Shown here: positions 17,129 through 34,597 of the stretch, in pieces
How the letters are laid out: each line of letters begins with the position of its first letter
Numbering within the stretch: the first letter of the stretch is position 1
Virus record (IMG/VR): IMGVR_UViG_3300033067_001518
Coordinates: 1-44,535 of that record
Strand: one strand, 5' to 3'
DNA from: a virus
Lineage: Duplodnaviria; Caudoviricetes
DNA: 44,535 nucleotides
Made by a program: the position numbers and the translations under genes
Notes under the pieces: model-generated
Databases searched by the model: none
What the model was told of the DNA's origin: nothing
Seen by the model: only the letters and a program-made list of their open reading frames with translations

Positions 17129-17161
17129 TGTGGGAGGAGCATTGCTTCTCCCACATTTTTT
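17129..17161 (+). terminator. Intrinsic terminator after major capsid gene
   Basis: TGTGGGAGGAGC-ATT-GCTTCTCCCACA then TTTTTT. Confidence 0.9.
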
Positions 17162-17189
17162 GTTACCATTAAACACAAGAGGTAATTAG

Positions 17190-18710
17190 ATGCGAGCAAT
17201 CCTATCAATATTGTTATTGGCTGCAATGCTTGCATCTCATGCAGTAGCAGCAACAACATACACAACAAATTATAATCTAGCAAAACCATCAGATGGATCT
17301 ACAACTTGGGGTGCAAGTATCCGTGATGATTTAGATACTATTGATGCACAGATGTTCATTAACTCAAATAGTATCTCATCACATATTACAGACACTACAG
17401 ATGCACATGATGCTAGTGCAATATCTTCAACAGCAGGACCACTTGTTTGTACTTCTTCGCTAGATGTTCAAAGCTATTTAAACTGTCTTGATAATGAGCT
17501 TGGAGTTTTAACCGGTGGTCAAGTTGTAACATTAAATACAACACAAACAATTACTGGTGCAAAAACATTTACTTCATTGATTCAAGTAAATAACGGAATT
17601 ACAGTAACAGGAACTACGACATTATCTAGTCTTTCAGATGGAGTTATGCATACTGTTGGTGGAATTGTTTCATCTTCTCCAATTGTTGATGCAGATTTAC
17701 TATTATCAGCACCAGACTTAGGAACTCCATCTGCACTAGTTGGAACAAATATTACAGGTACAGCTTCAGCACTAAACATTGGCGGTAATGCTGCTACAGC
17801 GACTACAGCATCAAATGTTACAACTAATGCAAATTTAACTGGAGAGGTTGTTTCTGTTGGAAATGCAACAACACTAGGATCATTTGCATCTTTAAGCTTA
17901 AGCTCTGCTCTTACAGATGAGACTGGATCTGGATCTGCAGTATTTTCTACATCTCCAACTTTAGTAACTCCAAATCTTGGAACACCAACAACATTGGTTG
18001 GTACAAATATTACAGGAACAGCCGCTTCTCTTAGCATTGGTGGAACATCCGATAACGTTACCGGTATAGTTGCAGTTGCAAATGGAGGAACTGGATTAGC
18101 TATATTAACATCAAACAATGTTATTTTAGGAAATGGAACATCTTCTCCAACATTTATTGCACCAGGAACAATGGGTAATGTTCTTACTTCAAATGGTACT
18201 ACATGGATTAGTTCTCCATCTGCTGGTGGTGGCGGTGGATCTTTACAGTGGATTGAGTCAGCAAATGCACCAATATCGTCAACAGACTCTGCAAATAACA
18301 GAGTGTTTTTATTTGAATCATCACTTGGTCAGAGTCTTTATGCATCTATAAAGGTTCCACAGACATATGTTTCTGGAAGCCAGATTAAAATGTATCTTCA
18401 GTTCTATAGTGCTGATTCAAGCGGAACTGCTTTGATGCAATCTATATCTACATTAATTAGAACAGGTACAGATACATTTTCAAACACAACGAATCAAAGA
18501 ACTTCTACAAATGCAGCAGTTACACTTAGTGGTGGTACTGTAGATATTCCACAGCAAGTTATTCTTGATTTAACATCAGCAACAGGACAAATTAATGGTG
18601 TATCTGTTTCTGCAGGAAATTATATTAACGTTAATTTAACAAGAGGTACGGATACTGCAACAAGTGACATTAGTTCACTAGTTTATAATGCAGAAGTTAC
18701 ATTCCAGTAG
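17190..18710 (+). CDS. Tail-fibre-like protein with predicted signal peptide
   Basis: MRAILSILLLAAMLASHAVA then TTNYNLAKP...WG...DTID; QTITGAKTF and VANGGTG fibre motifs; internal LGTP..LVGTNITGTA repeat. Confidence 0.8.
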   Translation: MRAILSILLLAAMLASHAVAATTYTTNYNLAKPSDGSTTWGASIRDDLDTIDAQMFINSNSISSHITDTTDAHDASAISSTAGPLVCTSSLDVQSYLNCLDNELGVLTGGQVVTLNTTQTITGAKTFTSLIQVNNGITVTGTTTLSSLSDGVMHTVGGIVSSSPIVDADLLLSAPDLGTPSALVGTNITGTASALNIGGNAATATTASNVTTNANLTGEVVSVGNATTLGSFASLSLSSALTDETGSGSAVFSTSPTLVTPNLGTPTTLVGTNITGTAASLSIGGTSDNVTGIVAVANGGTGLAILTSNNVILGNGTSSPTFIAPGTMGNVLTSNGTTWISSPSAGGGGGSLQWIESANAPISSTDSANNRVFLFESSLGQSLYASIKVPQTYVSGSQIKMYLQFYSADSSGTALMQSISTLIRTGTDTFSNTTNQRTSTNAAVTLSGGTVDIPQQVILDLTSATGQINGVSVSAGNYINVNLTRGTDTATSDISSLVYNAEVTFQ

Positions 18711-18718
18711 GAGATATT

Positions 18719-20497
18719 ATGAAGAATATTTTAAATACGATTTTAATCATTAGTCAGTTATGTATGTTTAATTCTGCAAATGCAGCATTAAATGAAACTG
18801 ACAGAGCAATTGTTGATAAAACAAGAAACATACTATTAAACCCTGGATTTGAAAACGGTAGAGCAAGTTGGACTGCTTCCGGCGGAGCTACCACAGCAGC
18901 CAACTCCACAGCTAAAGGAACAGGTGCATTAGGGTATGATTGGGATAGTAACTCTGCATCTCAAACACTTCAATCTACTTCTGTAACAATCCCTAATGGA
19001 CTACAATCTAAAAATGGTATGGCTTCATGCCAGATTAAGACTGTATCGGGTACAGCTACTCATACTATGATAGTGAATGATGGGACTACAGACATTGGTA
19101 CTCCATTAACAATTAATTCAAATACAGCAGCATTCCAAGAAACTAAGATTAACTTCGTATTTCCTGCGAGTGGAACGATTCGATTAAAACTAGCTTCCGT
19201 AAATGCAAACGAACCAGAAATTTACATTGATGATTGTAAGATCAGTTTAGCCGATAACATTTATGATGCTCCATTGGTTACTGCGTGGACTTCTTACACT
19301 CCTACGTTTACAGGTCTTGGCACAGTTACAGCTATTACTACTAAATATAGACGCGTTGGTGATTCGTTAAATATTATTGGTAATTTTACTATAGGTACTG
19401 TAGCTGGTTCTTTAGCTTCTTTGTCGCTACCGAGCGGATTAACAATTGATACCACTAAACTATCTGGTGCATCGACAAATCAATATATAGGTTTTGGGAT
19501 TACAGACTTAGCTACTGTAAACTCTACTAAAGATTTAGTTTTATTAGCATCTCCTTCAAATTCTTCTACCCTTGTTTACATGGGGCTTCCAGATTATTCT
19601 GCTACAGGATCAGCATTATCTCCTAAAAATGGTAATGCGTTATTTGCTAGTTCTTCTGTTATCTCTGTAGATATTACCGTTCCCATCCTCGGATGGTCAG
19701 CCGTTAGCGCAGTAAGCGCGGATCAGACGGATTACGGCGATACTTCGTATACACCTACATTTACAGGTTTTGGTACTGTTAGTTCAATCGAGTGCAAGCA
19801 CTCAAGAGTATCTAGTAATTTAAACATTATATGCAAATTTACATCGGGTGTATCAACAGCTACAGAAGCTAGAGTTTCATTACCAAACTCTTTAACTACA
19901 GCAGATACTACAAGAATTCCAAGTATACAAATATGTGGGGACTCAAGAAAGTCTGGTGTTACAACAACTGACTTCGGTATTAGATCTCCACTATGCACAG
20001 CTTCATTAACTTATTTAACCTTTGGTAAATCTACAAGTACTACTGCTCCGTTTGCATCTGGAAATGGTAGTGATCTAGTTTCTAATGGTGAGGTGTTTCA
20101 ATTTAATGCAACCATCCCCATCCAAGGCTGGTCATCTAATCAACGTGCTCCTACATTAGTGGGGAGTGTGACGAGTAATGCTACAAGCGCATTAAAACAA
20201 ACTTCAATCAGGCATACAACTTCTTGCACAACCGGAACCTGTGCTAGTGCTGCTGCTGATGGAATAACGTCATGTGCTTTTAGTTCAACTGGAGTTTACA
20301 ACTGCACAGTTACGACAGCATACTCATCTACACCTGATTGCTTATTTACAACAGTAAATGAAGCTGGAAACGTGTCGTTATGTAGACAAGACTACACAAA
20401 TTCTACATCAAGTAATATTAGGGTTAATTGCTTCACAACAGGAAGCACAACCGCTGTAAATACAGCTTGGTATATGCAATGTCAGGGGCCACGATAG
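18719..20497 (+). CDS. Multi-domain fibre/adhesin-like protein with predicted signal peptide
   Basis: NILLNPGFENG carbohydrate-binding-like start; two TSYTPTFTG.GTV...PI.GWS domains; 8-Cys C-terminal domain. Confidence 0.75.
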   Translation: MKNILNTILIISQLCMFNSANAALNETDRAIVDKTRNILLNPGFENGRASWTASGGATTAANSTAKGTGALGYDWDSNSASQTLQSTSVTIPNGLQSKNGMASCQIKTVSGTATHTMIVNDGTTDIGTPLTINSNTAAFQETKINFVFPASGTIRLKLASVNANEPEIYIDDCKISLADNIYDAPLVTAWTSYTPTFTGLGTVTAITTKYRRVGDSLNIIGNFTIGTVAGSLASLSLPSGLTIDTTKLSGASTNQYIGFGITDLATVNSTKDLVLLASPSNSSTLVYMGLPDYSATGSALSPKNGNALFASSSVISVDITVPILGWSAVSAVSADQTDYGDTSYTPTFTGFGTVSSIECKHSRVSSNLNIICKFTSGVSTATEARVSLPNSLTTADTTRIPSIQICGDSRKSGVTTTDFGIRSPLCTASLTYLTFGKSTSTTAPFASGNGSDLVSNGEVFQFNATIPIQGWSSNQRAPTLVGSVTSNATSALKQTSIRHTTSCTTGTCASAAADGITSCAFSSTGVYNCTVTTAYSSTPDCLFTTVNEAGNVSLCRQDYTNSTSSNIRVNCFTTGSTTAVNTAWYMQCQGPR

Positions 20498-20749
20498 ATG
20501 AAAAAACTAATATCCATTACTGAGCATACGAAGATAGAGTTGGGTTTAATCATAACTCTACTTTCTGTTTCAGCAGGGGGTTTAGTTTTTATTATAAGTG
20601 CGTTTGGAAAAATAGAGTCTCATGATGTAGAATTAAAGAGCATCAAAACAGAAGTCAGTGAATTTAGGTCAGTGGCAGAAGATGTAAGTTATTTAAGGGG
20701 GAGATTTGATGAGAAATTTCCGCCGAATATTAAAAGTGGTAATAGGTAG
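20498..20749 (+). CDS. Membrane protein with coiled coil (holin/antiholin-like)
   Basis: One hydrophobic segment, start of lysis cluster. Confidence 0.6.
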   Translation: MKKLISITEHTKIELGLIITLLSVSAGGLVFIISAFGKIESHDVELKSIKTEVSEFRSVAEDVSYLRGRFDEKFPPNIKSGNR

Positions 20750-20766
20750 TAAAAAAGGAGAATAAA

Positions 20767-20904
20767 ATGGAACAAGTTAATATTATGATGATTCTAGCTG
20801 TACTATTCGGAATTTCCGAATCATTGAGTATGATCCCACAGATCAAGGCTAATGGTGTATTTCAGCTTATCTTCAACGTTCTTAAAAGCTTTAAGAAGCA
20901 ATAA
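20767..20904 (+). CDS. 45-aa holin-like membrane protein (not in ORF track)
   Basis: AAGGAG SD; MEQVNIMMILAVLFGISESLSMIPQIKANGVFQLIFNVLKSFKKQ. Confidence 0.7.
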   Translation: MEQVNIMMILAVLFGISESLSMIPQIKANGVFQLIFNVLKSFKKQ

Positions 20905-21077
20905 TGACAGGAGCAGAGGTATTAGCTGTCATCACTGGATTTTTTAAATTCTTTCCAGAGGTTAGAAAGCTAATACTTATGCTTCAAAAGACACCAGAAG
21001 AGAAACGACAAGCTCGTCTTGAGATGGTGAATGTCATATTTGATGAGGTAATAAATGAAAATCGTCCAAAATGGTAA
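20904..21077 (+). CDS. 57-aa inner-spanin-like protein (not in ORF track)
   Basis: TAATG overlap; hydrophobic N-terminus then charged helix; overlaps downstream lipoprotein gene. Confidence 0.55.
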   Translation: MTGAEVLAVITGFFKFFPEVRKLILMLQKTPEEKRQARLEMVNVIFDEVINENRPKW

Positions 21078-21354
21078 ATCATTTGCAGTTGGATTTTTGT
21101 TTGCAATCACATTAATTGGATGTGCTGGAGTTACGTTTCCATACAAATGGTTTTATCCAGATCTTAAGTCATATGAAGGTATACTTATTGGTGATCGTCC
21201 ATCAAATGATCTAGATGCTTCAGAGTGCATAAAGGGATCTTCTGGTGAACATGGGTGTGTAGTTATGCTAAAGCCTGAATTTAAGGCCATGTATAATGAA
21301 TACCTTGATATGAAGCAAAAGATAATCACTCTTGAAAGGAACTGCCAGCAATGA
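21055..21354 (+). CDS. Lipoprotein, outer-spanin-like
   Basis: FAVGFLFAITLIGC lipobox, extra Cys, lysis-cluster position. Confidence 0.65.
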   Translation: MKIVQNGKSFAVGFLFAITLIGCAGVTFPYKWFYPDLKSYEGILIGDRPSNDLDASECIKGSSGEHGCVVMLKPEFKAMYNEYLDMKQKIITLERNCQQ

Positions 21355-21761
21355 ATTTAACCCTTACAAGAAAAACTTTCATAGAGAACGGTGTAATTGG
21401 TGAGTTAAATAGTGATGATGGTTTTATTTCTGTATGCCTTGAGAGAACATATCTTAAGAGTAAAAAGAGTAGACCAAAGGTTCCTGCTGGTACATACAAG
21501 TGCGTAAGAGGAATACATAGACTTCATGATAATGTTGATTTTGAGACATTTGAGGTTATGGGAGTTCCTGGGTGTACTGGTATATTAATCCATGTTGGTA
21601 ATTATTCAGAAGACAGTGATGGCTGTATTTTGATTGGATCTGCAGTTGGAAATAGATCAAATGGATCAAAGATGATAACTAGTAGTAAGCAAAAGTTTGC
21701 AGAGTTTATGGAAAGACAAAAAAGCGTGGATGAATTCACGTTAATAGTGGAGGCATTGTAA
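21351..21761 (+). CDS. DUF5675-like protein, candidate endolysin
   Basis: LER...VPAGTY...GILIHVGNYSEDSDGCILIG His/Cys motif (L,D-transpeptidase-like). Confidence 0.8.
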   Translation: MNLTLTRKTFIENGVIGELNSDDGFISVCLERTYLKSKKSRPKVPAGTYKCVRGIHRLHDNVDFETFEVMGVPGCTGILIHVGNYSEDSDGCILIGSAVGNRSNGSKMITSSKQKFAEFMERQKSVDEFTLIVEAL

Positions 21762-22753
21762 TGAGTGGACCATTTGGAAGTTCAAGTTTTGGTTCGGGAC
21801 CATTTTCTGGTTCTCCATTTTATAACACTAAGACATTGATTGATGCTGTACTTCAGAACACTGGTCACTCAAAACCAGCTACAGAGGTTGCAAAGAGAGC
21901 TGCTGTACTTAACTTTTTAAACAATAGATATTCAATTATATCCACAACTCAGCATTGGGATTGGCTGTATCAAGAAGTTGACACTCTTTTTAAAGAGCCT
22001 TACCAAGTTGGAACATTAAACTTAACAAAGGGTCAGCAAGCTATTACCGGTAACGGTACATCTTGGAGTGCTAATTTAATTCCATACAACTTCATTGTTA
22101 TTCCATCTCGTAATGAAACGTACATGATTCAAACTATTGAATCTAATGTTGCACTTACAATGGAAGGTCAGTATGCAGGTGAAACAGATACTGAAATTGG
22201 ATACATTGCAATCAAACCTGTTTATAGAATGCCTGATGATTTAGAAAGCATTCAAAGTATTCAGGTAGATAACGTTGGTGAATTAGTGCCAATGGGTCGT
22301 CAAGAATTTGCTAGAGTTAAGCAGTCAATGCCAGGACAGACCGGTATGCCTAGATGCTTTACTGAACTTTATCGTCGTGCAGAGGATAACGTTAGATACA
22401 TTGAGATTTATCCTGCTCCAGATAAGAACTATACAGCTAGACTTCATTACGGTGTTAATATTTTAAAGCTCGATGATAACGAGGACAGTATTCCACTAGT
22501 TCCAGATCGTCACAGAGCAATTCTTTATTATGGTGCTCTAGCAGATATGTATGCTTACATGAGAGATGTTAATTTGACTGTTACAGCTGAGGCTAACTTC
22601 AATGCAGCATTACTCAATATGAGAAATGATACTAAGATTACTGACTCTAGAATACAATTTACTCAAAAGAGAAATTACAGAAACAGAAGCAATAGACGCA
22701 AATCTGTAAGAGTTAGCTATAGTCCTAGCGACTTTGCGAGAGAAGAAGACTAA
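21761..22753 (+). CDS. Putative head-tail adaptor / tail tubular protein
   Basis: WDWL, YRMPDD, IEIYPAPDKNY, LVPDRHRAILYYGALA. Confidence 0.75.
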   Translation: MSGPFGSSSFGSGPFSGSPFYNTKTLIDAVLQNTGHSKPATEVAKRAAVLNFLNNRYSIISTTQHWDWLYQEVDTLFKEPYQVGTLNLTKGQQAITGNGTSWSANLIPYNFIVIPSRNETYMIQTIESNVALTMEGQYAGETDTEIGYIAIKPVYRMPDDLESIQSIQVDNVGELVPMGRQEFARVKQSMPGQTGMPRCFTELYRRAEDNVRYIEIYPAPDKNYTARLHYGVNILKLDDNEDSIPLVPDRHRAILYYGALADMYAYMRDVNLTVTAEANFNAALLNMRNDTKITDSRIQFTQKRNYRNRSNRRKSVRVSYSPSDFAREED

Positions 22754-24324
22754 TGCCATCAGCACCATTAACAGTTAAATTCCCATATATTGGAATGAAC
22801 GGTTTCAATGGTGGTTTATCGTCTGAAAATCCAATAATTGTTGAGCAAGGAAAACTTGTAATTGCTAACAATGTTCTTATTGGAACAATTCCAACTAAGC
22901 GTAAGCGAGGTGGCCAGGAAGCGTATAATACTGTAGCACTAGGATTATCTACATCTCCAATTAGAGGAATAGTTGAATACTGGAGAACAGCATTTGTTTC
23001 AGGATCACCTGTTAGCGATATATTTCTTCATCAAGGTGATAAGGTTTGGTCTATAGATGATAGGAATGCAGTAGCTGTAGATAGAACTGGATCTCTTACT
23101 CTAAGTGCTAATGCAATACCAAGTTACCAGCCTTTTCAGCAGACTCTTTATTTTTGTTCTACAGTAACTGCAGACGGTTACAATAAGTGGGATGGTGTTT
23201 CTGCAACAGCAGTAGCTGCAACTCCTCCTCCAGATGGAGTTGGCAAATATCTATGCTCTCATCTTGGAAGAATGATCATGGCAGGACAAGATGATTACCC
23301 TTTTAGACTGTATTTCTCTAGTTCTCTTGATGCAGAAGATTGGTCATCTATATCACCATCAAATGCAACTTCTCTTGATCTTGATGACAACGGAGATCCA
23401 GAAGGTATTACTGGTATTGTAAGTTTTCAGAATAGACTTTATGCTTTCACAAGAAGATCAATCTATGAAATTACAGGAACAACTCCAGATACATTTATAG
23501 TTCAAAGAATATCAAACGGTATTGGGTGCGTTTCACATGCATCTATTGTTTCAATCCCAAACGATGTTATTTTCGCGTCAGATCGCGGAGTTCATAGCTT
23601 AAAGCAGTTAGATGCAGGTAGACAGACAGAGACAAAGTTTGTATCTAGAGATATTCAAAGACTATGGACAGAACTTATTAATTATACAAGATTCAAGCAA
23701 TGCCAAGCTGCATACGATGAAAACATAAACTCATATATCATTACAGTTGTAAGCGGATCTGACATTGTTAATAGAGATATTCTTGTTTACAATATAGAAT
23801 TTGGAACATGGACTCAGTGGACAAATATAAATGCAAGATCAATATCAACAGTATTAATTGGGAATAAAAGAAAAATATTAATAGGATCAGAATCTGGAGG
23901 AGTTTCTTTACTTGGTGTTGAGACAAGACAAGACTTTGGCGCAGATTATTCAGCAGAATTTAAAACTGGAACATTATATCCTGGCGGAGATGTAACACTT
24001 CAGAGGCGCATATTGTCAATGACTGTTCTTGCATCTTCTAATTCAGCATCAACAATAGATGTTTCTTGGAATATAGATGGTATCAGAGGTGGAACCACAA
24101 CAATAGCACTTACTGCAGGTGAAGATTTACTTGGAACAACGTTTGTTTTGGGACAATCTATCCTTGGAATTGGTCAATATTTGCCGTACACTTTCACTAT
24201 TGATGAAGTTGGATATGGTATCCAGTTAGATTTTTTAATTCGCGGATCTGGAGATGTTGAAATCTACGGTTTCGTTTTGGAGGTTGATAATGCGAACGCT
24301 ATTTTTACTGCTGGGGCTTCTTAG
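22753..24324 (+). CDS. Putative tail nozzle/stabilisation protein (P22 gp10-like beta-propeller)
   Basis: FNGGL, KRKRGG, RLYFSS, GIGCVSHASI, FASDRGV; follows adaptor. Confidence 0.75.
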   Translation: MPSAPLTVKFPYIGMNGFNGGLSSENPIIVEQGKLVIANNVLIGTIPTKRKRGGQEAYNTVALGLSTSPIRGIVEYWRTAFVSGSPVSDIFLHQGDKVWSIDDRNAVAVDRTGSLTLSANAIPSYQPFQQTLYFCSTVTADGYNKWDGVSATAVAATPPPDGVGKYLCSHLGRMIMAGQDDYPFRLYFSSSLDAEDWSSISPSNATSLDLDDNGDPEGITGIVSFQNRLYAFTRRSIYEITGTTPDTFIVQRISNGIGCVSHASIVSIPNDVIFASDRGVHSLKQLDAGRQTETKFVSRDIQRLWTELINYTRFKQCQAAYDENINSYIITVVSGSDIVNRDILVYNIEFGTWTQWTNINARSISTVLIGNKRKILIGSESGGVSLLGVETRQDFGADYSAEFKTGTLYPGGDVTLQRRILSMTVLASSNSASTIDVSWNIDGIRGGTTTIALTAGEDLLGTTFVLGQSILGIGQYLPYTFTIDEVGYGIQLDFLIRGSGDVEIYGFVLEVDNANAIFTAGAS

Positions 24325-25192
24325 TTCTTTAAAATCTTACGGTGCAGTTTGTTCTAGGACTCTAACATTTGCAGATGGTTCAATATTAACTGCATCTCAG
24401 TTAAATAGTGAGTTTAATGCTATTACTAACTGTGCAAATGCTCTTGATAACTCAAACATAACAGATGCTGCAAATGTAAATCCAAAGAAAATTGATGCTG
24501 CTATTGCTGGAGATGGTATTGCAAGAAATGGATCAACTGGTGTACTTAGTGTAAACACTGATGATACAACAATAGAAAAAAATTCAGACACTCTTAGAGT
24601 TAAGGACTCAGGAATAACTCCTGCAAAAATTGCTGCAAACGCAGTTACAACATCTAAAATTCTAGATCAAAACGTAACAACAGCTAAGATAGAAGATGGA
24701 GCAATAACTAATGCAAAACTAAATGCATCAATTGTACTAGTTCCAGTTGGAACAATACTTCCTTTTGCTGGACCACTTGCTCCATCTGGATTCTTACTGT
24801 GTAATGGAACAAGTTATTTAAGGACTGATTATGCTGCGCTATTTGCAGTAATAAGTACATATTACGGATCAAGCAGTGGAACAACATTTAATGTTCCAGA
24901 CTTTAGAGGAAGATTTCTTCGTGGAGCAGACAGTGGAACAGGCAGAGATCCAGACGCATCTTCTAGAACTGCTATGAATCCAGGTGGATCAATAGGTGAT
25001 AGTTTGGGGTCTATTCAGTCTGATAGTTTTAGATCACACACTCACTCAGCATTTACACTAAATATAACAAACACAGGAAATGTATCTGATACATCATCAA
25101 GATATACGCAGGGTAGTGCTACAACAAGTGCATCTGGTGGTAGCGAAACCAGACCAATCAATGCAAACGTTAACTACATAATTAAATACTAA
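24290..25192 (+). CDS. Tail fibre with phage tail-collar domain and predicted signal peptide
   Basis: GGAGG SD before ATG 24290; VPVGTILPFAG...GFLLCNG...YAALFAVI...FNVPDFRGRFLRG; ETRPINANVNYIIKY; VTT.KI repeats. Confidence 0.88.
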   Translation: MRTLFLLLGLLSSLKSYGAVCSRTLTFADGSILTASQLNSEFNAITNCANALDNSNITDAANVNPKKIDAAIAGDGIARNGSTGVLSVNTDDTTIEKNSDTLRVKDSGITPAKIAANAVTTSKILDQNVTTAKIEDGAITNAKLNASIVLVPVGTILPFAGPLAPSGFLLCNGTSYLRTDYAALFAVISTYYGSSSGTTFNVPDFRGRFLRGADSGTGRDPDASSRTAMNPGGSIGDSLGSIQSDSFRSHTHSAFTLNITNTGNVSDTSSRYTQGSATTSASGGSETRPINANVNYIIKY

Positions 25193-25599
25193 TGAAATTC
25201 AATATCCTAGAAATATCAGACAACCATATACCAGAAATCATCAGATGGTTTGATGACCGTAAGTGGCCTTTGCCTGGTGTACCTGCAATTGGACCAAAGA
25301 TTGGTGCAGTAGCTGAGAACAATGGGGTAATTTACGCATGTGTTTACTCATATATTACTGGAACATCTGTTGCATTTTTAGAGTGGACAGCCACAAATCC
25401 AGATGTTCCACAAGATGATGCAATGAAGGCTTTTGATGATCTTCTATTTCACTTCAAAAAGATGTGTGAATTATCAAATCCAAAGGTAAGAGTTCTATGC
25501 TTGGTAACGCAAAGCGCAGCATTTGCATCAAGACTTAAAAAACATGGTTTTAAGATTCAAGAGGAATGTTATAAAGCTGTATGGACGTTAAAAGAATAG
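25192..25599 (+). CDS. GNAT-fold-like tail-module protein
   Basis: AFLEWTATNP...LKKHGF; position before ejection genes as in many podoviruses. Confidence 0.55.
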   Translation: MKFNILEISDNHIPEIIRWFDDRKWPLPGVPAIGPKIGAVAENNGVIYACVYSYITGTSVAFLEWTATNPDVPQDDAMKAFDDLLFHFKKMCELSNPKVRVLCLVTQSAAFASRLKKHGFKIQEECYKAVWTLKE

Positions 25600-25985
25600 T
25601 AAAGGGTGATCCCGAATATGACTTTTGCTATGCAAAAGCTACTGTTTGGTGGGACTTTTGGAAGTTCCCACCTCCTCCTATCGATTTTTTGCCAAACAAT
25701 ATGATCTGCGCTTACAATAAAGGTGTGCCAGTATGTGTAGGATTTCTTTATCATACCGATAGCAAGATTTCTTGGCTTGAATTTATTGTCGCTGATAATA
25801 AAGCAAGTAAAGTTGATAGAGCTAAAGGTATAGAAGATGTTCTTTCTGCTGCAAAAATATTAGCAAATTTGATGGGATTTGGATCTGTGTTCACAACATC
25901 TAAAAACCAAAGTTTGAATCATAAGCTTGAAAAACAATACATAAAAACAGACATGGGTGTAACCCACTTTGTAGGGAGAGTTTAA
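25581..25985 (+). CDS. GNAT-fold-like tail-module protein
   Basis: WWDFWKFPPPPIDFLP...GFLYHTDSKISWLEFIVAD. Confidence 0.6.
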   Translation: MDVKRIVKGDPEYDFCYAKATVWWDFWKFPPPPIDFLPNNMICAYNKGVPVCVGFLYHTDSKISWLEFIVADNKASKVDRAKGIEDVLSAAKILANLMGFGSVFTTSKNQSLNHKLEKQYIKTDMGVTHFVGRV

Positions 25986-25986
25986 A

Positions 25987-27162
25987 ATGCCAGCATTAAC
26001 TTCAATAGCATTAGGAGCAGCAGGAGCGATTGGTGGAGCAATTGCTGGTGGTGAAGATGAAACAACTACAACAAAGAAATATATTCCACCTGCATCTCAA
26101 CAAGAGTTAGACCTTCAAAAGAAAAGCATGGAGTCTTATCTTCAGCAATTAAATCTTGCTCAACAAGGTGAGGCAGGAATTGCAGGAGGACAAGGAGTTC
26201 AGGATGCATCTCGTAATTCATTAGAAAGTATTCTCGGTGGTCAGGCATTTAATATTAGTCCAGAACAACAAGCACAAGTTCAAGCAATTAGAGATGCTGC
26301 TGTTCAATCTGGAACTGGTGATATTCAGAACTTTGTAAATCAGAACTTATCAAACATCAGTAACTCTGCAGGTGTTCGTGGACTTCGTGGTCAAGCATTA
26401 TCAGAACTTCAAGGAAGATCAATTGGTGAGGGTGCTCGTGCAATTGGAAATCTTTCTTCACAAGCAAATCTAACAGCTGCTCAACAGTCTTTGGATGTTC
26501 CATATAGACAAGCATCACTTCAGGGTGGAATAGCAAACCAAAATGCTAACTTTATGGAAAGACTTAGACAACAAGCAATTGAGAATCGTCAACAGCTTCA
26601 AAATCCAGTGTTAATGCAATCAATGCAAAATGAAAGACTTGGACAGGCTACACAAACAAGCACAACTCCAGGTAGTGTTGGTAAAGCAATTGGTGGAGCA
26701 CTTGGTGGTTTAGGATCTGGATTTTCAACTGGTGCTGGAATTTCAAAAGGACTTAGTGATCTTGGTGGTAGTGATTACAACAGCTCTGGTGGTGGAGTTA
26801 AATACGCAATGGCGCATGGTGGTCGCGTTCCAGATCAAGATCGTAAATGGACTCCACAGGAAGTTGAGCAATTCAAGAAAGGTTACAATGCACCAAGTGG
26901 AGGTGCTGTGACTAGTGCATTGAGAGATCTGTTCACTTTTAATGATGATAAAGAAAAAGAAGATAACTATGCTCGTGGTGGTAAGGTTGAAGGAACAGCA
27001 CATTTTCGCGGAGACACAGAAGCAAACGATACAGTTCATGCAAAACTATCTCCAGGTGAAATTGTAATTCCAAGATCATTCGCACATGATCCAGACTTAT
27101 CAAAAGCATTTATTAACTACCTTCATAAGAAAGAAAAAGAATCTAAGAAGGAGCAATCATAA
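25987..27162 (+). CDS. Putative DNA ejection/pilot protein
   Basis: Gly/Ala hydrophobic N-terminus, Gln-rich helices, GG-rich patch. Confidence 0.7.
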   Translation: MPALTSIALGAAGAIGGAIAGGEDETTTTKKYIPPASQQELDLQKKSMESYLQQLNLAQQGEAGIAGGQGVQDASRNSLESILGGQAFNISPEQQAQVQAIRDAAVQSGTGDIQNFVNQNLSNISNSAGVRGLRGQALSELQGRSIGEGARAIGNLSSQANLTAAQQSLDVPYRQASLQGGIANQNANFMERLRQQAIENRQQLQNPVLMQSMQNERLGQATQTSTTPGSVGKAIGGALGGLGSGFSTGAGISKGLSDLGGSDYNSSGGGVKYAMAHGGRVPDQDRKWTPQEVEQFKKGYNAPSGGAVTSALRDLFTFNDDKEKEDNYARGGKVEGTAHFRGDTEANDTVHAKLSPGEIVIPRSFAHDPDLSKAFINYLHKKEKESKKEQS

Positions 27163-28298
27163 TGGGACTTCGTGAATTTTTAATGGGTGCTCAACAAGGA
27201 TCTGAAGGTGCTACTCAGTTTGCAAAGACTGCGCAGGAGATGAGACAACAGGCAGCGAGTAAAGATCTTGCTGCTCAGTTACCGGGCCTATCAGAAAAAT
27301 TTCGTATGGCATCACCTGAAGAACAGGGTCGCATATCTGGAGAGATTGGTGGTCAGGATATTTTGGCTGGTGGAACTAAAAATCCGATGATTGAGCAGAT
27401 TGCTAAACTTGGTTTTGGATCAACTACATCAGATGTTCTAACACCAGATCAACTTGTATCTACTTATGGACTATCCCCTGAAAAAGCACAAGCAATTGGG
27501 TCACTTAAAACTCAAAAAGCACAACAAGCAGCACTTGGATATGGGCAAAAGGAAACTTTAGCAAAAACTAAAGAGGCAGGAGTTCAAGGAAGATTTGAAG
27601 AATCTTTAGGTGAGAGAAAAACAACTCGTGGGATTAAAAACTACGCTGATTTCAATAAAGACCTAGAGGGTGCTGAGGTTAAATTTGAAGATGCATCAAA
27701 AGGACTTGCATCTTCTCTTGCTCAGTTTAAGAAAAATCCAAACAAAGGTTCATTGCAGCAATTGGCAGTATCTATGGCAAGAGCCGGTGGAGATACTGGA
27801 GTTTTGTCAAATATGGATATGGCCGCTTATAAACTAAGCACAATGCCACAAGAGATTAAACAAATGATTTCATGGGCATATGATCTTCCAGAAGATGCAA
27901 TAACTCCAAGTGTTCAAAAAGCTTTAACTAATATGGCAGAATTTGGTTTATCACAGTCAGAAAAGAGAAAAGAAGATAGACTTAAAAATCTTTTTAAGAA
28001 CAACGTTTCTATTTATGGAAAAGAATTTCTTAAGGGTGAAAAGCCTGACGTTCTTAAGAATTGGGAAAAGAGACTTGGAATGGAAGCCTCTATTGATAAG
28101 AGTGGTGTTTCCGTTGGTCATAAAGCTAGAACGTTTACCGGTAAAGCAAATGATGTTATGTCTGCTGCTATTGCAACTAAGAACAAAAAAGTTATTGATG
28201 CTGTATCATCTAAGTTAAACCAATTGCCGGAAGGTAAAGATATTGGCGATAAGGCTGAATCAGCATTAATGGATTACATTAAAAAGGGTGCTCAATAA
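27162..28298 (+). CDS. Putative DNA ejection protein
   Basis: Helical, second of three TAATG-coupled genes. Confidence 0.6.
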   Translation: MGLREFLMGAQQGSEGATQFAKTAQEMRQQAASKDLAAQLPGLSEKFRMASPEEQGRISGEIGGQDILAGGTKNPMIEQIAKLGFGSTTSDVLTPDQLVSTYGLSPEKAQAIGSLKTQKAQQAALGYGQKETLAKTKEAGVQGRFEESLGERKTTRGIKNYADFNKDLEGAEVKFEDASKGLASSLAQFKKNPNKGSLQQLAVSMARAGGDTGVLSNMDMAAYKLSTMPQEIKQMISWAYDLPEDAITPSVQKALTNMAEFGLSQSEKRKEDRLKNLFKNNVSIYGKEFLKGEKPDVLKNWEKRLGMEASIDKSGVSVGHKARTFTGKANDVMSAAIATKNKKVIDAVSSKLNQLPEGKDIGDKAESALMDYIKKGAQ

Positions 28299-30163
28299 TG
28301 CCTAGTGAATTAGACAATATTAATCTAACAGATGAGCCAACAAAACCGGTTGATTCTTCTACAAAAGACTTTGGTATGAAGGAAAGATTAATTGCTACTT
28401 TATTATTTGATACTCAACCAAAACGCAGGGCTGCTTTTGTTGAAAGATTTGGATATGAGTTAAATCCAAAAGACGACAATTTAATTAAGCCAATTGGTGC
28501 AGATGATGAACAATACTTTCCAATAGATCCAGGTGGAATATTTGATTTCAAGAAGTATGGCAAAACAGGAAAAATGCCAAGCACATTTGGGCAGGGTATG
28601 CTTGAGAGTGTTATTGATATTTTAGAAGGTGCTTCTGATGTTGCGCAAGGAACTGCAATTGAAGCAGGTGGAGATGTCAGTGCTGTCGGTGGACCGGTGG
28701 CTCTTGCTGCTGGTCGTGGAGCAGGAAGAATGGCAACATTTAATGCTATAGAAAGTGCAAAGGATGCGATTGGTAATATATTTTTAGATAAAGAAATACC
28801 AGTTGATTACGGCATTAGAGCGACTCAATCCGCAATTCAAGCAGTTGGACCAGAAGCACTAAGTGGTGCTGTTTCAAAAGGTAAAGATATTTTAAGCGGA
28901 ACTGCAAAGCTAGTATCAAAAGGCGTTAGAAATCTTTTAAATATTGGTGACGGTACAATTGGAAATCAGGCATGGAATGCAATCATTAAAAATCCAGAAA
29001 TAGTTGCAGATGAAAACAAGCTAGTGAAAGCAGGATCAGGACTTGATTCCTCTGTTGAGCAATTGATAGGTGGTCACAATAAATCTACTGCTGACTTTTC
29101 AAATACTGCATACCAAAGAAAGATGAACGAGCTTGAACCACTAAGAAAGTTAGAAGCAGAAAAGCTTTCAATGGATAGAAACTTAGATGCTCCAATAGAT
29201 AAAATTATAAATCTTTTTGAATCAGCTAAACTTGATTTAGCTAGACCAGATATTAAATCACAATCAAGAAAAGATGGTATTGCATATCTTCAGAACCACA
29301 TTGATTCATTGAAATCTGCAAGAGAATCTATGTCTGGAAATCTTCCTGGACCAGAAGCTGGAAGATATAACTTTGGGCAAGTTGATGAGATGGTTAAAGA
29401 GCTTCAAAAAGATTTATACAGCAAGAAAACTCTTAACGTTGATTGGAGAGATGCCATAAAGAAGGTTGTAGATGGAGATGGTGGATTAAACACGCTACTC
29501 AAGAATGCTGCAACAAATGCTGGATCACCATATGCTAGTATTAAACAGCAAGAATCAAAACTATTCAGTGCGTTTGAAGATAATGTCCAGAATATTGACG
29601 CTGCAAAAGTTAGAAGATTTACAATGGGTGATGATCTAATGTCACCAAAAGGAACAAGCACAGATACCACTGCTAGATTATTTAGAGAATCTGTAGCTAA
29701 GACTGACGATGCACTTGGGACTGATTTCTACAATCAATTTAGAACAGGTCAGATCCAAAATAAATATTGGGAGCAACTCAATAAGCAAGGTCCAAGAGGA
29801 TCTGGTGGATCATTAATTCCTGCACTAGCAGCAGGTTCCACTGTCGGTGGTGCTGTTGCAAGCAAAACAGGATCTCCTGGACTTGGATTTGTAGCAGGTG
29901 GATTGGCTGCAGCTCCAGTGTATGCACTAACTCAACCAAGGTTCGGAACAAAAACTGCTGTTGGTGCTGCTAAACTAGGAAATGCAATAGAAGGAATTGG
30001 TGTACCAGAAGCTTTACAACCATCTGCAGACATGGCAAAAATGTTAGCAACTCGTGGTATTGCTCAAGGAGTTGAAGGTGAAGATAGGTCTAAGCCACAG
30101 GAATTAAGCATTAATGATATAAATCTTAATGATGAATTAAGTAATATAGATTTGAACCAATAA
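28298..30163 (+). CDS. Putative DNA ejection protein (large)
   Basis: Gly/Ala-rich membrane-like patches, 621 aa. Confidence 0.6.
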   Translation: MPSELDNINLTDEPTKPVDSSTKDFGMKERLIATLLFDTQPKRRAAFVERFGYELNPKDDNLIKPIGADDEQYFPIDPGGIFDFKKYGKTGKMPSTFGQGMLESVIDILEGASDVAQGTAIEAGGDVSAVGGPVALAAGRGAGRMATFNAIESAKDAIGNIFLDKEIPVDYGIRATQSAIQAVGPEALSGAVSKGKDILSGTAKLVSKGVRNLLNIGDGTIGNQAWNAIIKNPEIVADENKLVKAGSGLDSSVEQLIGGHNKSTADFSNTAYQRKMNELEPLRKLEAEKLSMDRNLDAPIDKIINLFESAKLDLARPDIKSQSRKDGIAYLQNHIDSLKSARESMSGNLPGPEAGRYNFGQVDEMVKELQKDLYSKKTLNVDWRDAIKKVVDGDGGLNTLLKNAATNAGSPYASIKQQESKLFSAFEDNVQNIDAAKVRRFTMGDDLMSPKGTSTDTTARLFRESVAKTDDALGTDFYNQFRTGQIQNKYWEQLNKQGPRGSGGSLIPALAAGSTVGGAVASKTGSPGLGFVAGGLAAAPVYALTQPRFGTKTAVGAAKLGNAIEGIGVPEALQPSADMAKMLATRGIAQGVEGEDRSKPQELSINDINLNDELSNIDLNQ

Positions 30164-30164
30164 T

Positions 30165-30647
30165 ATGATCGACATAACAGTATCATTCAACGAAGACGTT
30201 GATCCATCATCACTAGAACAAATGAACAAACTACCAAAGAAGATATTTGAGTGGGTTTGCTACACAATGAATCAAGGTGGATATGTTCCACATATTTATG
30301 AAATAGACAGTAAATCTTTGCGCTTTGTGATTAGAACTGTTGCTGGTACAAAGACAAAACTTAGTTTCCAAAACCAGATTAAGATTGCATCAGTTGCAAA
30401 TCATCTATTCAAAGTTAAACAGCGAGTTTGGCCCATTGCCATAATGAGAGATCTTTGCGGAAATCAGTTCCTAGACTTCTGGAAGATCACAGTTACAGGA
30501 GAACCAAGAGGAGTTGAAGATCACATTGACAGAGAAGATGATGATCTGTTTGAAGAAGATGATGATTCTACCACATCGTATCTTCCTGAATCAGATCTCC
30601 TTCAACTTCCCCAAGAATGCTCTCCTCGTGAACTACACATGTCTTAA
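30165..30647 (+). CDS. Hypothetical protein with acidic tail
   Basis: TAA-T-ATG junction; last 80 nt overlap the convergent gene. Confidence 0.6.
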   Translation: MIDITVSFNEDVDPSSLEQMNKLPKKIFEWVCYTMNQGGYVPHIYEIDSKSLRFVIRTVAGTKTKLSFQNQIKIASVANHLFKVKQRVWPIAIMRDLCGNQFLDFWKITVTGEPRGVEDHIDREDDDLFEEDDDSTTSYLPESDLLQLPQECSPRELHMS

Positions 30648-30945
30648 CTTTTCCGTCCACCTCGTCAGAAAATTTATGTAAAAAAGCATAATCTGGATCG
30701 TCTTTGTATTTATCCCACAGATCCAAATCTACCGGCTCTAGCTCAAATCCATCACTTATCAAAAGATGCTGTCCTTTTTTCCATTCCATCCTGCAGTCTG
30801 ATGCACTGCTTAATACCCATACGTCCTCAGCTCTAGTTAGCATCCCACGGCTACTATCTGGCACATACAGTCCAGATTTTGTTCTAAGTCTTGATCTTTC
30901 TCGTACTGCGAAAACAAACATTCGTCTTTTAAGTGGTTTTTCCAT
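30568..30945 (-). CDS. GroES-like co-chaperonin (divergent)
   Basis: KPLKRRMFV...RTKSGLYVPDS and VVHEESILG match the GroES PLxDRVxV, KTxSGLxIP and xxxESDILx patterns. Confidence 0.65.
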   Translation of the reverse strand: MEKPLKRRMFVFAVRERSRLRTKSGLYVPDSSRGMLTRAEDVWVLSSASDCRMEWKKGQHLLISDGFELEPVDLDLWDKYKDDPDYAFLHKFSDEVDGKVKTCVVHEESILGEVEGDLIQEDTMW

Positions 30946-31037
30946 ATTCTGTTTTTATAGAATATCTATTTGATTGCCAATAAAATTTTGATTTATTAGT
31001 CTTTTTGTTAGCATAATAATGATAGAGGAAACACTAA

Positions 31038-31361
31038 ATGAACGAAAAACTATCTACTCCATTAGATTTATCAGCTTCGACTGAATCTCAGGTTTTTGAC
31101 ATTACAAAATGTAGTGGTTTTGCAGTTCAGTTGGTTTGGACTGGATCTCCTACTGGTACAGCTAAGATTCAAGGTTCATTAAATGGAACTGTTTTCTCTG
31201 ATATTGCTTCTGCATCAGTTGCAACTGGCGGATCATCTGGTGACTTCTTATTTAACACTTCTGATTTAGTTCACTATCACCACATTAAAATTATATACAC
31301 TAGTACATCTGGTACAGGATCAATGGACGTGTGGGTTGGTGGAAAAGAGCAATCAATTTAA
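31038..31361 (+). CDS. Small beta-sandwich virion/fibre-associated protein
   Basis: FAVQLVWTG...KIQGSLNG...GKEQ; paralogous to N-terminus of 33383..34174. Confidence 0.7.
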   Translation: MNEKLSTPLDLSASTESQVFDITKCSGFAVQLVWTGSPTGTAKIQGSLNGTVFSDIASASVATGGSSGDFLFNTSDLVHYHHIKIIYTSTSGTGSMDVWVGGKEQSI

Positions 31362-31960
31362 TGAAAAAAATATTATTACCACTATTAATATCATTATTCT
31401 TATCAACTGCTAATTCCAGTGAGATTAGAAATATTGGTTCAAGCAGTGCTATAACATTTCCAACATTTGCAGACATGCTTTTGTTCCCATCTCCACCAGA
31501 TGGTTTACTAGCAGTTACTCTTGATACTCATGAATTATATATGTGGGATCAGAGCATCACAACATTTACACTAGTAAATGCAGGTGGAGGAGGAGGTGGA
31601 ACATGGGGATCAATTACTGGTACTCTTTCAAGTCAGACAGATCTTCAGAATGAACTTAATGCAAAATCAAATATTCGTACTGTAAATACAGTATCTGCAA
31701 ACTTTACTATTCCATCTTTAACTTCTGACTATATATTAAATGTAGATTCTACTGGTGGATCGGTTACAATAACAATTCCTAGTTCATCATTATCAGGAAC
31801 ATATTGCATAGATGTTAAAAACATTGGAAGTCCAGCAACAGATGTTGTTTTAGATCCAGTTGGATCTCAAACAATTGACGGTAATTTAACTTTCACAGAG
31901 ACAGACGGAAATGAATCAGTTCGTCTTTGTCCATTAACAAGTAACTGGTTCATTTATTAA
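31361..31960 (+). CDS. Fibre-like protein with predicted signal peptide
   Basis: Start at TAATG overlap; MKKILLPLLISLFLSTANS; GGGGGTWGSITGTLSSQTDLQNEL motif; GSQTIDG C-terminal domain. Confidence 0.75.
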   Translation: MKKILLPLLISLFLSTANSSEIRNIGSSSAITFPTFADMLLFPSPPDGLLAVTLDTHELYMWDQSITTFTLVNAGGGGGGTWGSITGTLSSQTDLQNELNAKSNIRTVNTVSANFTIPSLTSDYILNVDSTGGSVTITIPSSSLSGTYCIDVKNIGSPATDVVLDPVGSQTIDGNLTFTETDGNESVRLCPLTSNWFIY

Positions 31961-31970
31961 GGAGAAAATC

Positions 31971-32792
31971 ATGAAGATCACTTCGGCGTTAGTATTATTG
32001 TTTATCTTGAGCACAAATGCTCTTGCTGCTTATAACCAAACACCATTTGCAGTAACTAAGGGTGGAACAGGAACCACGACAAGCACAGGTTCTGGTTCTG
32101 TTGTTTTATCAACCTCACCTACATTAGTAACTCCAGCTCTTGGTACTCCAAGTGCTTTGGTAGGTACTAACATCACAGGAACGGCTTCTGGACTGACTGC
32201 TGGCAACGTAACAACCAATGCTAACTTAACTGGTGCTGTTACATCTACAGGAAATGCCACATCACTTGGTTCTTTCTCTAGTGCAAATCTTAGTGGTGCA
32301 GTTAGTGATGAAACAGGATCTGGTGCAGCTGTGTTTGCAACATCTCCAGTTTTTACAACTCCAAACATTGGATCAGCTACTGGTAGCGTTTCTGGTAATG
32401 CTGGAACTGCAACAGCACTTCAAACAGCTCGTACAATCAATGGTGTTTCTTTTGATGGTACTGCAAACATTACCATTACTGCAGCTCAAGCAAATATGAA
32501 TGTTGTTGATGGTGGAGATGCAGCATATTCAATCCTTGCTGCAAATAATGTTGTTAGAACATCTACAACACTTACTGCAAATAGAGCTTACACTCTTCCA
32601 CTTTGTACCGGTTCAAACATTGGTGAAAAACACTATGTTAAAAATCTTCCTGCTCAAACATTTAACATTGTTTTGACTGCTGCTGGATCTGATTTGATTG
32701 ATGGATCTGCAACAACAACATTACTCCCTGGTGATTCTGCAACTGTTATTTGTGGTGCATTCTCAACAGATGGAACTTGGGACCTTAACTAA
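31971..32792 (+). CDS. Fibre protein with predicted signal peptide
   Basis: AAGGAG SD; MKITSALVLLFILSTNALA; ATALQTARTINGVSFDGTANIT tail-fibre motif. Confidence 0.8.
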   Translation: MKITSALVLLFILSTNALAAYNQTPFAVTKGGTGTTTSTGSGSVVLSTSPTLVTPALGTPSALVGTNITGTASGLTAGNVTTNANLTGAVTSTGNATSLGSFSSANLSGAVSDETGSGAAVFATSPVFTTPNIGSATGSVSGNAGTATALQTARTINGVSFDGTANITITAAQANMNVVDGGDAAYSILAANNVVRTSTTLTANRAYTLPLCTGSNIGEKHYVKNLPAQTFNIVLTAAGSDLIDGSATTTLLPGDSATVICGAFSTDGTWDLN

Positions 32793-32815
32793 TTAACAAA
32801 AGAAGCGGTTGGATA

Positions 32816-33376
32816 ATGAAAAACATAATAATCATTTTATCTATACTTTATTATTCAACCGCATCTGCTGGTTATTTTAATAAACCAAAGAGTGCAAGTA
32901 TCGGATCTCTTCAATGGATTGAAGCAGGTGCTGCTCCAATTACAGCTGTAGATTCTGTAAACAACAGAATATTTTCATTTGTATCTTCATTGTCTCAAAA
33001 CTTATATACATCTATCAACGTTCCTGATTCATATGTTCCAGGAAAACAAATTAAAATGTCTCTCAAGTTTTATAGTCCAGACTCAAGTGGAACAGCTCTA
33101 CTAACTGCTGTTTCAACTCTTATTAGAACTGGCACTGATGCGATCACAAGTACAACTAACCAAAGAACATCTACTAACTCTGCTATTACATTATCTGGTG
33201 GAACCGTTAATATTCCTCAGTCTGTAATTTTTGATCTTACTAGCTCAACAGGAACGATTAACAGTGTTGCTGTTTCTGCTGGTAGTACAATTTTAATAAA
33301 TTTAAGTCGTGGTTCTGATACAGCTGCATCTGACCTTAGTTCTTTAATCTATAACGCTGAGGTAATTACTCAATGA
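32816..33376 (+). CDS. Stand-alone fibre head domain with predicted signal peptide
   Basis: MKNIIIILSILYYSTASA; colinear with the C-terminal domain of 17190..18710. Confidence 0.8.
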   Translation: MKNIIIILSILYYSTASAGYFNKPKSASIGSLQWIEAGAAPITAVDSVNNRIFSFVSSLSQNLYTSINVPDSYVPGKQIKMSLKFYSPDSSGTALLTAVSTLIRTGTDAITSTTNQRTSTNSAITLSGGTVNIPQSVIFDLTSSTGTINSVAVSAGSTILINLSRGSDTAASDLSSLIYNAEVITQ

Positions 33377-33382: not shown

Positions 33383-34174
33383 ATGCTAACTAGATCAATA
33401 GATAATGTATCTACATCAACAAGCATTGTTGGATATGAGATAGATCTATACTGGGTTTACGTTTGGGCTGTTCAATTTATTTGGGATGGAACAACAAATG
33501 GAACAGTAAAGATCCAGGGTACTGTTGACGGTGAAACTTGGAATGATATTGCAGGAACATCATTTCCAACCGGTGGTGCTCCAGGTGGATACTTTTTCAA
33601 TGCCAGTGCATTGGTTGGATATATGGGAATTAGACCTGTATACACAAGAACAAGTGGATCTGGAACATTAAGTTGTTTCATTTCAGGTAAAGAACAGACT
33701 GTAACAAGTGAAAATGCAGCATCGTTTATCGATGTAGGAGAAAAATATGTCAGGACGTCAAGATTTGCTACGATTAGCTCGGGAACAAGCGGAACAATTA
33801 CACTCCCACCAAACTCGCAAGTTGTACTTGACGACTTCGGAGGCTCGACGGACGCCGTTCTCAGTAAAATTGTCTCTGGGAAGCCGAATTATGAAAATGT
33901 TAAAACCGTTGGCTTCACCGTTATCGCTACTAGCTTTGACAGTGCTGGTAATTATAGCATTACTGGTACGCCATCTTCTTATCCAATAGCAATTATTTAT
34001 AGAGTCCGTCAGCAAATTAAGGATTTTGATTCAACATCATCTGATATACTTGGTGGAGTTGATTTTGATTCTGGACCTGGAAGTTATTTAACATCTAATA
34101 TTGATGGAGGAAAATCAAACTCTACTTATGGTGGTACAATACCTATCGATGGTGGAAGTTCGACATCATTTTAA
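33383..34174 (+). CDS. Fibre-associated two-domain protein
   Basis: N-domain like 31038..31361; ends NIDGG...IDGG. Confidence 0.7.
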   Translation: MLTRSIDNVSTSTSIVGYEIDLYWVYVWAVQFIWDGTTNGTVKIQGTVDGETWNDIAGTSFPTGGAPGGYFFNASALVGYMGIRPVYTRTSGSGTLSCFISGKEQTVTSENAASFIDVGEKYVRTSRFATISSGTSGTITLPPNSQVVLDDFGGSTDAVLSKIVSGKPNYENVKTVGFTVIATSFDSAGNYSITGTPSSYPIAIIYRVRQQIKDFDSTSSDILGGVDFDSGPGSYLTSNIDGGKSNSTYGGTIPIDGGSSTSF

Positions 34175-34183
34175 GGAATAAAT

Positions 34184-34597
34184 ATGGCACAACAAATTCA
34201 AATAAGAAGAGATACTGCTGCAAACTGGACATTAAATAATCCTACTCTTGCAGATGGTGAGATGGGAAGAGAAACTGATACTGCTCTTTTTAAGTTTGGT
34301 AATGGAGTAACAGCATGGAACTCTCTTGCTTATGGTGGTCTTAGTGGGACAAATGGTACTAATGGAACTAACGGTACAAATGGATCTACATGGAGAACTG
34401 GTATTGGAGTACCATCAAATGGTCTTGGTTCAAATGGCGATTACTATATGAATATTTCGACATCAGACTATTATTTAAAATCAGGTGGAATTTATTCAGT
34501 TGAAGGAAACCTTAACACAACAAACACAAATCTTGACTGTGGAAATGCAACATCAAATTATGGTGCATCTATGGTTTATGATTGTGGAGGAGCTTAA
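34184..34597 (+). CDS. Mtd_N-like (major tropism determinant/hyaluronidase N-terminal) domain protein
   Basis: QIRRDTAANWTLNNPTLADGEMGRETDT...KFGNGVTAWNSLAY; (TNG)4 spacer. Confidence 0.85.
   Translation: MAQQIQIRRDTAANWTLNNPTLADGEMGRETDTALFKFGNGVTAWNSLAYGGLSGTNGTNGTNGTNGSTWRTGIGVPSNGLGSNGDYYMNISTSDYYLKSGGIYSVEGNLNTTNTNLDCGNATSNYGASMVYDCGGA

Follow-up and report, generated by a model that had tools for sequence, protein, structure and literature searches.

Six leadered proteins in a podophage-like genome

The window analysed here is the whole of IMG/VR virus record IMGVR_UViG_3300033067_001518 (Caudoviricetes), a podophage-like genome of 44,535 bases. It codes for a terminase, an SU10-type portal, capsid, an SU10-type adaptor, a nozzle or 'stabilization' protein, scaffold and decoration proteins, three Cys-free ejection-like proteins, a lysis-type cassette and an integrase-family protein (PF00589), a gene set that points to a short-tailed, possibly temperate phage. 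The lipoprotein of the lysis cassette suggests a two-membrane host. Contig sequence from one sequencing run is identical to positions 16000-34000, and that run may be where the window comes from. The late region also harbours six genes, designated by their first position (17190, 18719, 24290, 31361, 31971 and 32816), whose products begin with Sec signal-like leaders (Table 1). An earlier note on this DNA had described them as tail-fibre-like proteins with signal peptides and paired cysteines, possibly forming an exported fibre system.

Table 1. Features of the window discussed in the text (aa, amino acids; nt, nucleotides).
Feature	Position	Strand	Description
17190	17190..18710	+	Fibre: predicted Sec signal (residues 1-20), anchor-type N-terminus (21-55), Cys87/Cys99, repeat shaft, C-terminal 'socket' of ~157 aa
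'Socket' domain of 17190	18237..18707	+	C-terminal module found on many unrelated fibre anchors; name coined here
18719	18719..20497	+	Predicted exported adhesin-like partner: signal (residues 1-22), short helical arm, jelly roll (33-181), further beta-sandwich domains, 14 mature Cys
24290	24290..25192	+	Post-nozzle tail fibre: predicted signal (residues 1-18), anchor with Cys21/Cys48, shaft repeats, Collar domain
31361	31361..31960	+	Small fibre-type protein with signal: C-terminal tip domain, 2 Cys, no recognised anchor; phrog_25379 (tail), E 5e-10
31971	31971..32792	+	Fibre with signal: shaft repeats in common with 17190, tip-like domain in common with 31361, 2 Cys, no recognised anchor
32816	32816..33376	+	Signal and free copy of the socket domain, no Cys; mature part 69% identical to the last 157 residues of 17190
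Tail adaptor (SU10_adaptor)	21761..22753	+	No leader; likely fibre docking site; PF24175, E 1.5e-11
Nozzle / P22 gp10-like stabilisation protein	22753..24324	+	No leader; last 35 nt overlap the signal codons of 24290
Lysis-type cassette	20498..21761	+	Small membrane proteins, lipoprotein 21055 (putatively spanin-like), DUF5675 protein
Fibre-type cassette without leaders	33383..35805	+	33383 and two Mtd_N proteins (34184, 34600); internal control
Terminator-like hairpin	17129..17165	+	Between the capsid gene and 17190; 12-bp stem and T run; consensus match only

All six signal-like N-termini are present, each with a basic n-region, an 8-residue hydrophobic core (mean Kyte-Doolittle hydropathy 2.7-3.7) and a small-x-small site. 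To call signals we used a heuristic of our own, not SignalP, that combines a basic n-region, an uncharged hydrophobic 8-mer and a small-x-small site. It flagged the six and assigned them all to signal peptidase I (SPI) rather than to the lipoprotein class. The split between these proteins and the core late proteins that had been anticipated is thus seen with the heuristic: capsid, adaptor, nozzle and the two Mtd_N proteins are negative, as are terminase, portal, scaffold, decoration, the three ejection-like proteins, 31038 and 33383. Other positives in the window are two lipoproteins, two small membrane proteins and a few shadow open reading frames (ORFs). The background in control loci is 37 of 763 ORFs of at least 150 aa, and two of four homologues of the ejection-like protein 25987 were flagged falsely.

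As for the mature parts, the label 'tail-fibre-like' suits 17190, 24290 and 31971, is weaker for 31361 with its one PHROG tail match, and does not fit 18719, made of several beta-sandwiches, or 32816, a single domain, neither of which is a fibre shaft. 17190 weakly matches the neck of the TP901-1 receptor-binding protein (E 0.001) and is 51% identical to 31971 over 168 aa. 24290 has tail PHROG matches and, as the earlier note had reported, overlaps the nozzle gene (by 35 nt) and contains a Collar domain (PF07484, E 1e-21). The model of 18719 (predicted local distance difference test, pLDDT, 85) displays a leader helix, a short arm helix, a jelly roll resembling carbohydrate-binding modules (CBMs) and more beta-sandwich domains. 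In a fold search that effectively covered residues 32-181 of the model, the jelly roll matched the CBM4-2 structure 4bj0 (VIA: Z 16.7, root-mean-square deviation 2.0, 139 residues aligned) and CBM16 (Foldseek, E 5e-7). As modelled, residues 33-181 have the CBM4/16/22-type jelly-roll fold, which alone is no proof of function, and this domain may serve docking rather than carbohydrate binding. The Atlas model of 32816 resembles CBM4/9-type jelly rolls (TM 0.62, under our bar for naming a fold). Sequence searches against solved structures were uninformative for the socket, 31361 and 31971.

The earlier note had drawn a parallel with the MAT fibres of Bdellovibrio bacteriovorus. These are signal-bearing, phage-fibre-like trimers encoded on the chromosome, which function as cell-surface adhesins with varied tips (PMC10769870); they measure about 1,000 aa and have a common beta-rich domain of ~130 aa after the signal, and 13 of 21 end with S74 (PMC10769870). 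The six proteins likewise consist of a signal peptide followed by phage-fibre-like modules. However, they are only 186-592 aa long, Pfam finds no S74 in them, and their genes lie in the late region of a phage record that also encodes terminase, portal and capsid; the parallel therefore holds as an analogy and not as membership. In addition, no MAT structure is found among the solved-structure sequence matches, and the mature N-termini of the six are unrelated and have no common domain when compared with one another rather than with a MAT profile. Might the six nevertheless act as surface adhesins of the host cell, during infection or lysogeny, in the manner of MAT fibres? The MAT precedent and the CBM-like domain of 18719 would fit, but none of the six has a lipobox or a transmembrane segment in its mature part, their signals are of the SPI type, and the families occur on phage contigs beside structural genes. 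The proposed decoration of the host surface is thus disfavoured, and we consider it very improbable.

A Bdellovibrionota-like host had also been thought plausible; our host searches neither support nor exclude it. The alignment of 18719 matched three contigs of metagenome-assembled genomes (MAGs) with unrelated labels and phage-like gene content, and a scan of 131 genomes around one of these MAGs returned only that contig and two weak partial matches. One named homologue belongs to a Chitinophagaceae MAG, which we did not count as host evidence.

Leaders, start sites and cysteines in relatives

The annotated starts are the best supported ones. Shine-Dalgarno (SD)-like motifs precede 17190, 18719, 24290 and 31971, the start of 31361 overlaps the stop of 31038, and 32816 has a weak SD only, with the next in-frame start 58 codons downstream. 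Internal starts near the cleavage sites all lack an SD motif, and 24290 has no start at all before its anchor, which speaks against true starts downstream of the hydrophobic segments. A start at 24254 for the 24290 gene was rejected, as its GGAG abuts the ATG, compared with a GGAGG at normal spacing for 24290. The first 11 leader codons of 24290 overprint the 3' end of the nozzle gene (24290-24324), and this leader may have arisen by overprinting. Similar nozzle/fibre overlaps are found in three other loci (L002, L086 and L087).

We collected homologues of 24290, 17190 and 18719 (all counts include the query). Of 34 matches to 24290, 27 span the N-terminal region, the others (P0028-P0034) matching shaft repeats only and being left out. 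The heuristic detects a signal in 23 of these 27 proteins; the misses are one truly leaderless protein, two truncated gene calls and one protein whose leader is visible by eye. Signals are similarly called in 16 of 19 members of the 17190 family and in 115 of the 120 members of the 18719 family listed, among 372 matches. Identity between homologues is lower in the leader than in the next 30 residues in all three families (35 vs 58%, 34 vs 65% and 28 vs 44%). In 24/24 and 16/17 rows, with two and one short rows excluded, a small-x-small site keeps register with the start of the mature protein; overall, A-x-A-type sites are in register in 40 of 41 scored rows.

The leaderless relatives begin exactly at the predicted cleavage sites, a check that the earlier note had called for. 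Residue 21 of 17190 aligns with residue 2 of gp19 of Sinorhizobium phage phiM5 (hhalign 91%, E 9e-7), a leaderless protein recorded as a putative host-binding tail fibre 'detected in phage particle proteome' (ARV77521.1). As for 24290, we found six leaderless anchors of its type (L001, L088-L091 and L093). The anchor directly follows the initial Met in L088-L091 and L093, and does so weakly in MW202601.1 (E 3e-5; hhalign only 11%). In L090, the leaderless fibre gene comes after an SU10-type adaptor gene and a gene for a 519-aa protein, the same order as in the window, and L093 encodes leaderless and leadered paralogues two genes apart. The mature N-termini previously likened to virion anchors are therefore homologous to phiM5 gp19 for 17190 and to leaderless post-nozzle fibres for 24290. 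As the leaderless counterparts begin at the cleavage site, these N-termini are, judging from the alignments, normal fibre starts that have acquired a leader. Cleaved 17190 and 24290 would still plug into the tail, since they would have the same N-terminus as leaderless phage fibres after Met.

The mature Cys counts are as previously given: 2 in 17190, 14 in 18719, 3 in 24290, 2 each in 31361 and 31971, and 0 in 32816; the 15th Cys of 18719 is located in its leader. In the 18719 family, the number of Cys residues beyond residue 28 is even for 115 of the 120 listed proteins, compared with 35 of 71 leaderless controls (at least 400 aa and at least 4 Cys). Among a smaller set of leaderless fibres with at least two Cys, 15 have even and 6 odd counts, and parity alone is therefore a modest signal at low Cys numbers. 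Covariation between alignment columns of the 18719 family yields six reciprocal Cys pairs (104-173, 359-372, 406-426, 503-508, 519-529 and 541-588). In the 24290 family, C21 and C48 are both present in 17 rows and both absent in 8, with one row truncated, and C87 and C99 are found in 18/18 rows of the 17190 family. We infer that the cysteines, which are gained and lost in pairs, form disulfides. Export does not appear to require a Cys pair, as several leadered homologues of 24290 lack C21/C48.

Signal-bearing fibre proteins are thus a real, conserved and widespread feature among uncultured phages. One may ask whether the leaders are something other than working Sec signals, namely uncleaved structural or membrane-tethering segments used in assembly at the inner membrane, or segments bypassed by internal starts that yield cytoplasmic forms. 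The signal calls come solely from our heuristic, in-frame start codons lie within the leaders of 17190, 18719 and 31971, and the overlap with the nozzle gene could bias the composition of the 24290 leader. Against this, the A-x-A sites keep their register, the internal starts have no SD, and few rows (4/24 and 4/17) have a Met within the final 10 positions of the leader. Furthermore, paired cysteines go with the leaders and fit an oxidising compartment. Non-functional leaders hence seem improbable to us. An overlap artefact as the general cause of the leaders was rejected; of the six genes, only 24290 overlaps a core gene.

The socket domain and its partner gene

The earlier note had missed two points, the conserved gene pair formed by 17190 and 18719, a pairing that is new here, and the free socket copy in 32816. 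The socket domain has no Pfam match above the cut-off and no solved sequence relative, and profile comparison detects no homology between it and the N-domain of 18719. A scan of viral contigs gave 82 socket loci; we retained 80, and in 79 of these another gene follows. Several loci are near duplicates. The following gene belongs to the 18719 type in 77 of the 79 loci (59 by motif and 18 by eye; 63 by a stricter hidden Markov model). Twenty of these contigs were already known through 18719, and pairing occurs in 57 of the other 59. The heuristic calls a signal for 67 of the 79 next genes and for 6 of the 79 socket genes; among socket genes without a called signal, one more is likely leadered by eye and two are cut at the contig start. 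The N-termini to which the socket is joined are many and unrelated, and in several cases they are T7-gp17-type tail anchors; the contigs have lambda-like, podophage-like (T7/P22-like) or Mu-like neighbours. The gap between the 18719-type gene and the preceding gene is about -7 to 25 nt.

The pairing also varies with the type of partner. A socket lies upstream of 22 of 26 homologues of 18719 with a short arm and of none of 12 with a long arm. Over 51 pairs, socket distance tracks the distance between partner N-domains (rho 0.57, permutation maximum 0.34), but neither that between partner tips (rho -0.02) nor that between the N-termini of the socket genes themselves (0.02). Six homologues of 18719 with a longer 'GLPPT...' N-terminal extension (L098, L103, L107, L112, L113 and L118) follow genes with other C-terminal domains, of two shared types according to BLAST, which suggests alternative plug/socket pairs. 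Leaderless partners of the 18719 type are found in four loci, three of them distinct (L143, L144, L151 and L152). Their Met overlaps the stop of the socket gene, their start coincides with the predicted cut point of the leadered partners, and they have 5, 5 and 2 Cys.

Two further arrangements were observed. In seven loci with Mu-like or baseplate-like neighbours (L096, L132-L135, L188 and L200), a signal-bearing 18719-type gene comes after a short leaderless fibre-base gene. A second free socket-domain gene, which has no leader and no partner after it, is present on the same contig as L195 (L204:1316-1840) and parallels 32816.

A possible assembly route and the surrounding genes

To our knowledge, textbook tailed phages are built wholly from leaderless cytoplasmic proteins. 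This is the case of phiM5 gp19, of the post-nozzle fibres of MW202601.1 and of T7 gp17-type anchors. The window resembles these systems in the homologous N-terminal segment of phiM5 gp19 and 17190 and in the adaptor-nozzle-fibre gene order of MW202601.1, but its fibres have in addition a cleavable-type leader and Cys pairs. A separate distal adhesin is also known from two-part fibres such as gp37-gp38 of T2/T6 and the BPP-1 fibre with Mtd. As with 17190 and 18719, an anchored proximal protein is followed by a separately encoded variable tip; in those phages, however, both parts are cytoplasmic, while the distal part described here starts with a signal and contains 4-20 cysteines. Spanins and the coat proteins of filamentous phages are also exported. 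Furthermore, signal-bearing phage endolysins use the host Sec pathway (PMC10820202). All of these are lysis proteins or belong to membrane-assembled phages, and none is a tailed-phage fibre. N-terminal fibre domains are described as binding the tail hub and being rarely replaced (PMC10386132). In full-text searches of open-licence papers, with matches judged from titles and the opening lines of abstracts, we found no description of signal-bearing tailed-phage fibres, and the assembly route that such fibres would imply appears to have no described counterpart.

It is tempting to propose that the six leadered proteins are exported by Sec, cleaved and oxidised, and that they accumulate in the periplasm. 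Lysis would then mix the compartments, allowing the anchors of 24290 and 17190 to dock on finished particles built in the cytoplasm, probably at the adaptor/nozzle in the case of 24290. The freed N-terminal arm and the jelly roll of 18719 would bind the socket of 17190, and possibly 32816 as well, making 18719 a swappable distal adhesin. In most relatives, a leaderless socket gene, in several cases with a tail anchor, is paired with a leadered partner, so that their products would meet only after the inner membrane has been breached. P22 tailspikes and T4 fibres can attach in vitro to particles that are already formed, which makes late attachment biochemically plausible; our literature search gave no paper on this. 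The six proteins are probably exported fibre parts with disulfide bonds that would attach to the virion at lysis or later, and export, periplasmic folding with disulfides and late attachment appear well supported by the comparative evidence. We lean, somewhat less firmly, towards a more general proposal. Widespread uncultured phages of several tail types would split virion assembly over two compartments, with a fibre socket capturing a Sec-exported, disulfide-rich adhesin only at lysis, and the phage of the window would extend this route to the anchored fibres themselves. If so, virion assembly would include an additional compartment-crossing step, receptor-binding proteins would gain disulfide formation, and infectivity would depend on the Sec and Dsb systems of the host and on the course of lysis. 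The socket/partner pair, with its natural leadered and leaderless versions, makes the idea testable in E. coli with two small domains and without the need to culture the phages.

Several observations weigh against late docking on the virion. The window has leaders on both halves of the 17190/18719 pair, and the split between compartments is thus seen in relatives only. Linkage alone could explain the gene pairing and the distance correlation, tip and anchor distances are near saturation, and the family counts are not independent since the homologues are related. The model of 24290 is poor (pLDDT 55) and has no significant fold match in the PDB, where T7 gp17 scored no better than E 0.4. Searches for the socket, 18719 and the anchor of 24290 gave no match in cultured phages. 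In a related phage, G001, the 17190-like and 24290-like genes retain their signals, but the regions examined showed neither a socket nor an 18719-type gene. Finally, no anchor was recognised in 31361, 31971 or 32816; the last has no Cys and no partner gene after it, and the leaderless Mtd_N proteins could supply receptor binding without export.

Some of these points would also suit proteins that are exported but act independently of the virion, as soluble decoys, receptor blockers or periplasmic factors expressed by the lysogen and released at lysis. The lack of recognised anchors in three of the six, the free socket domain of 32816, which could be a decoy or a scavenger, the presence of the Mtd_N proteins and the integrase-family gene are all in keeping with such a role. 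Conversely, sequence identity remains high in the anchor-type N-termini that follow the leaders, 24290 occupies the canonical post-nozzle position, and in most relatives the 18719-type gene closely follows a leaderless gene, several of which have tail anchors. Likewise, promoter-like sites are no commoner than in shuffled sequences. We thus deem a virion-independent role unlikely, though less so than host-surface display or non-functional leaders, and we favour docking at lysis.

Downstream of the leadered genes, the leaderless proteins 33383, two Mtd_N and 35814 (33383-36272) are 53-75% identical in parts to those of the siphophage-like locus L097. This likeness is consistent with a recently exchanged module, and 33383 and the Mtd_N proteins provide a possible cytoplasmic receptor-binding route. 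The product of 31038 and the N-terminus of 33383 resemble one domain. Single-protein locus scans of viral contigs with the nozzle or the capsid as query gave no matches, nor did a scan of genome contigs with the 24290 alignment.

A few other features of the window deserve mention. Between the 24290 fibre gene and the ejection-like genes, two tandem genes for proteins of ~135 aa (25192-25985), presumably acetyltransferase-like from their appearance, have no Pfam match and are kept in L002, L085 and L086. The product of 8461-9105, outside the lysis cassette, is a lipoprotein with 7 Cys and, by eye, a HELSH zinc-protease-like motif; its relative in L094 comes after a DUF5675 gene. A low-complexity repeat at 39956-40292, whose three minus-strand frames translate to (RG)n, (SW/SR)n or (VE/VG)n, overlaps the end of the gene at 40259-40642. 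The YqaJ recombinase ORF (6628-7527, + strand) and a small ORF (30568-30945, - strand) each run opposite to their neighbours. G001 has a small gene similar to the latter (L083:1337-1729), and its large terminase gene (L084:1977-3992) contains what looks by eye like an intein insertion.

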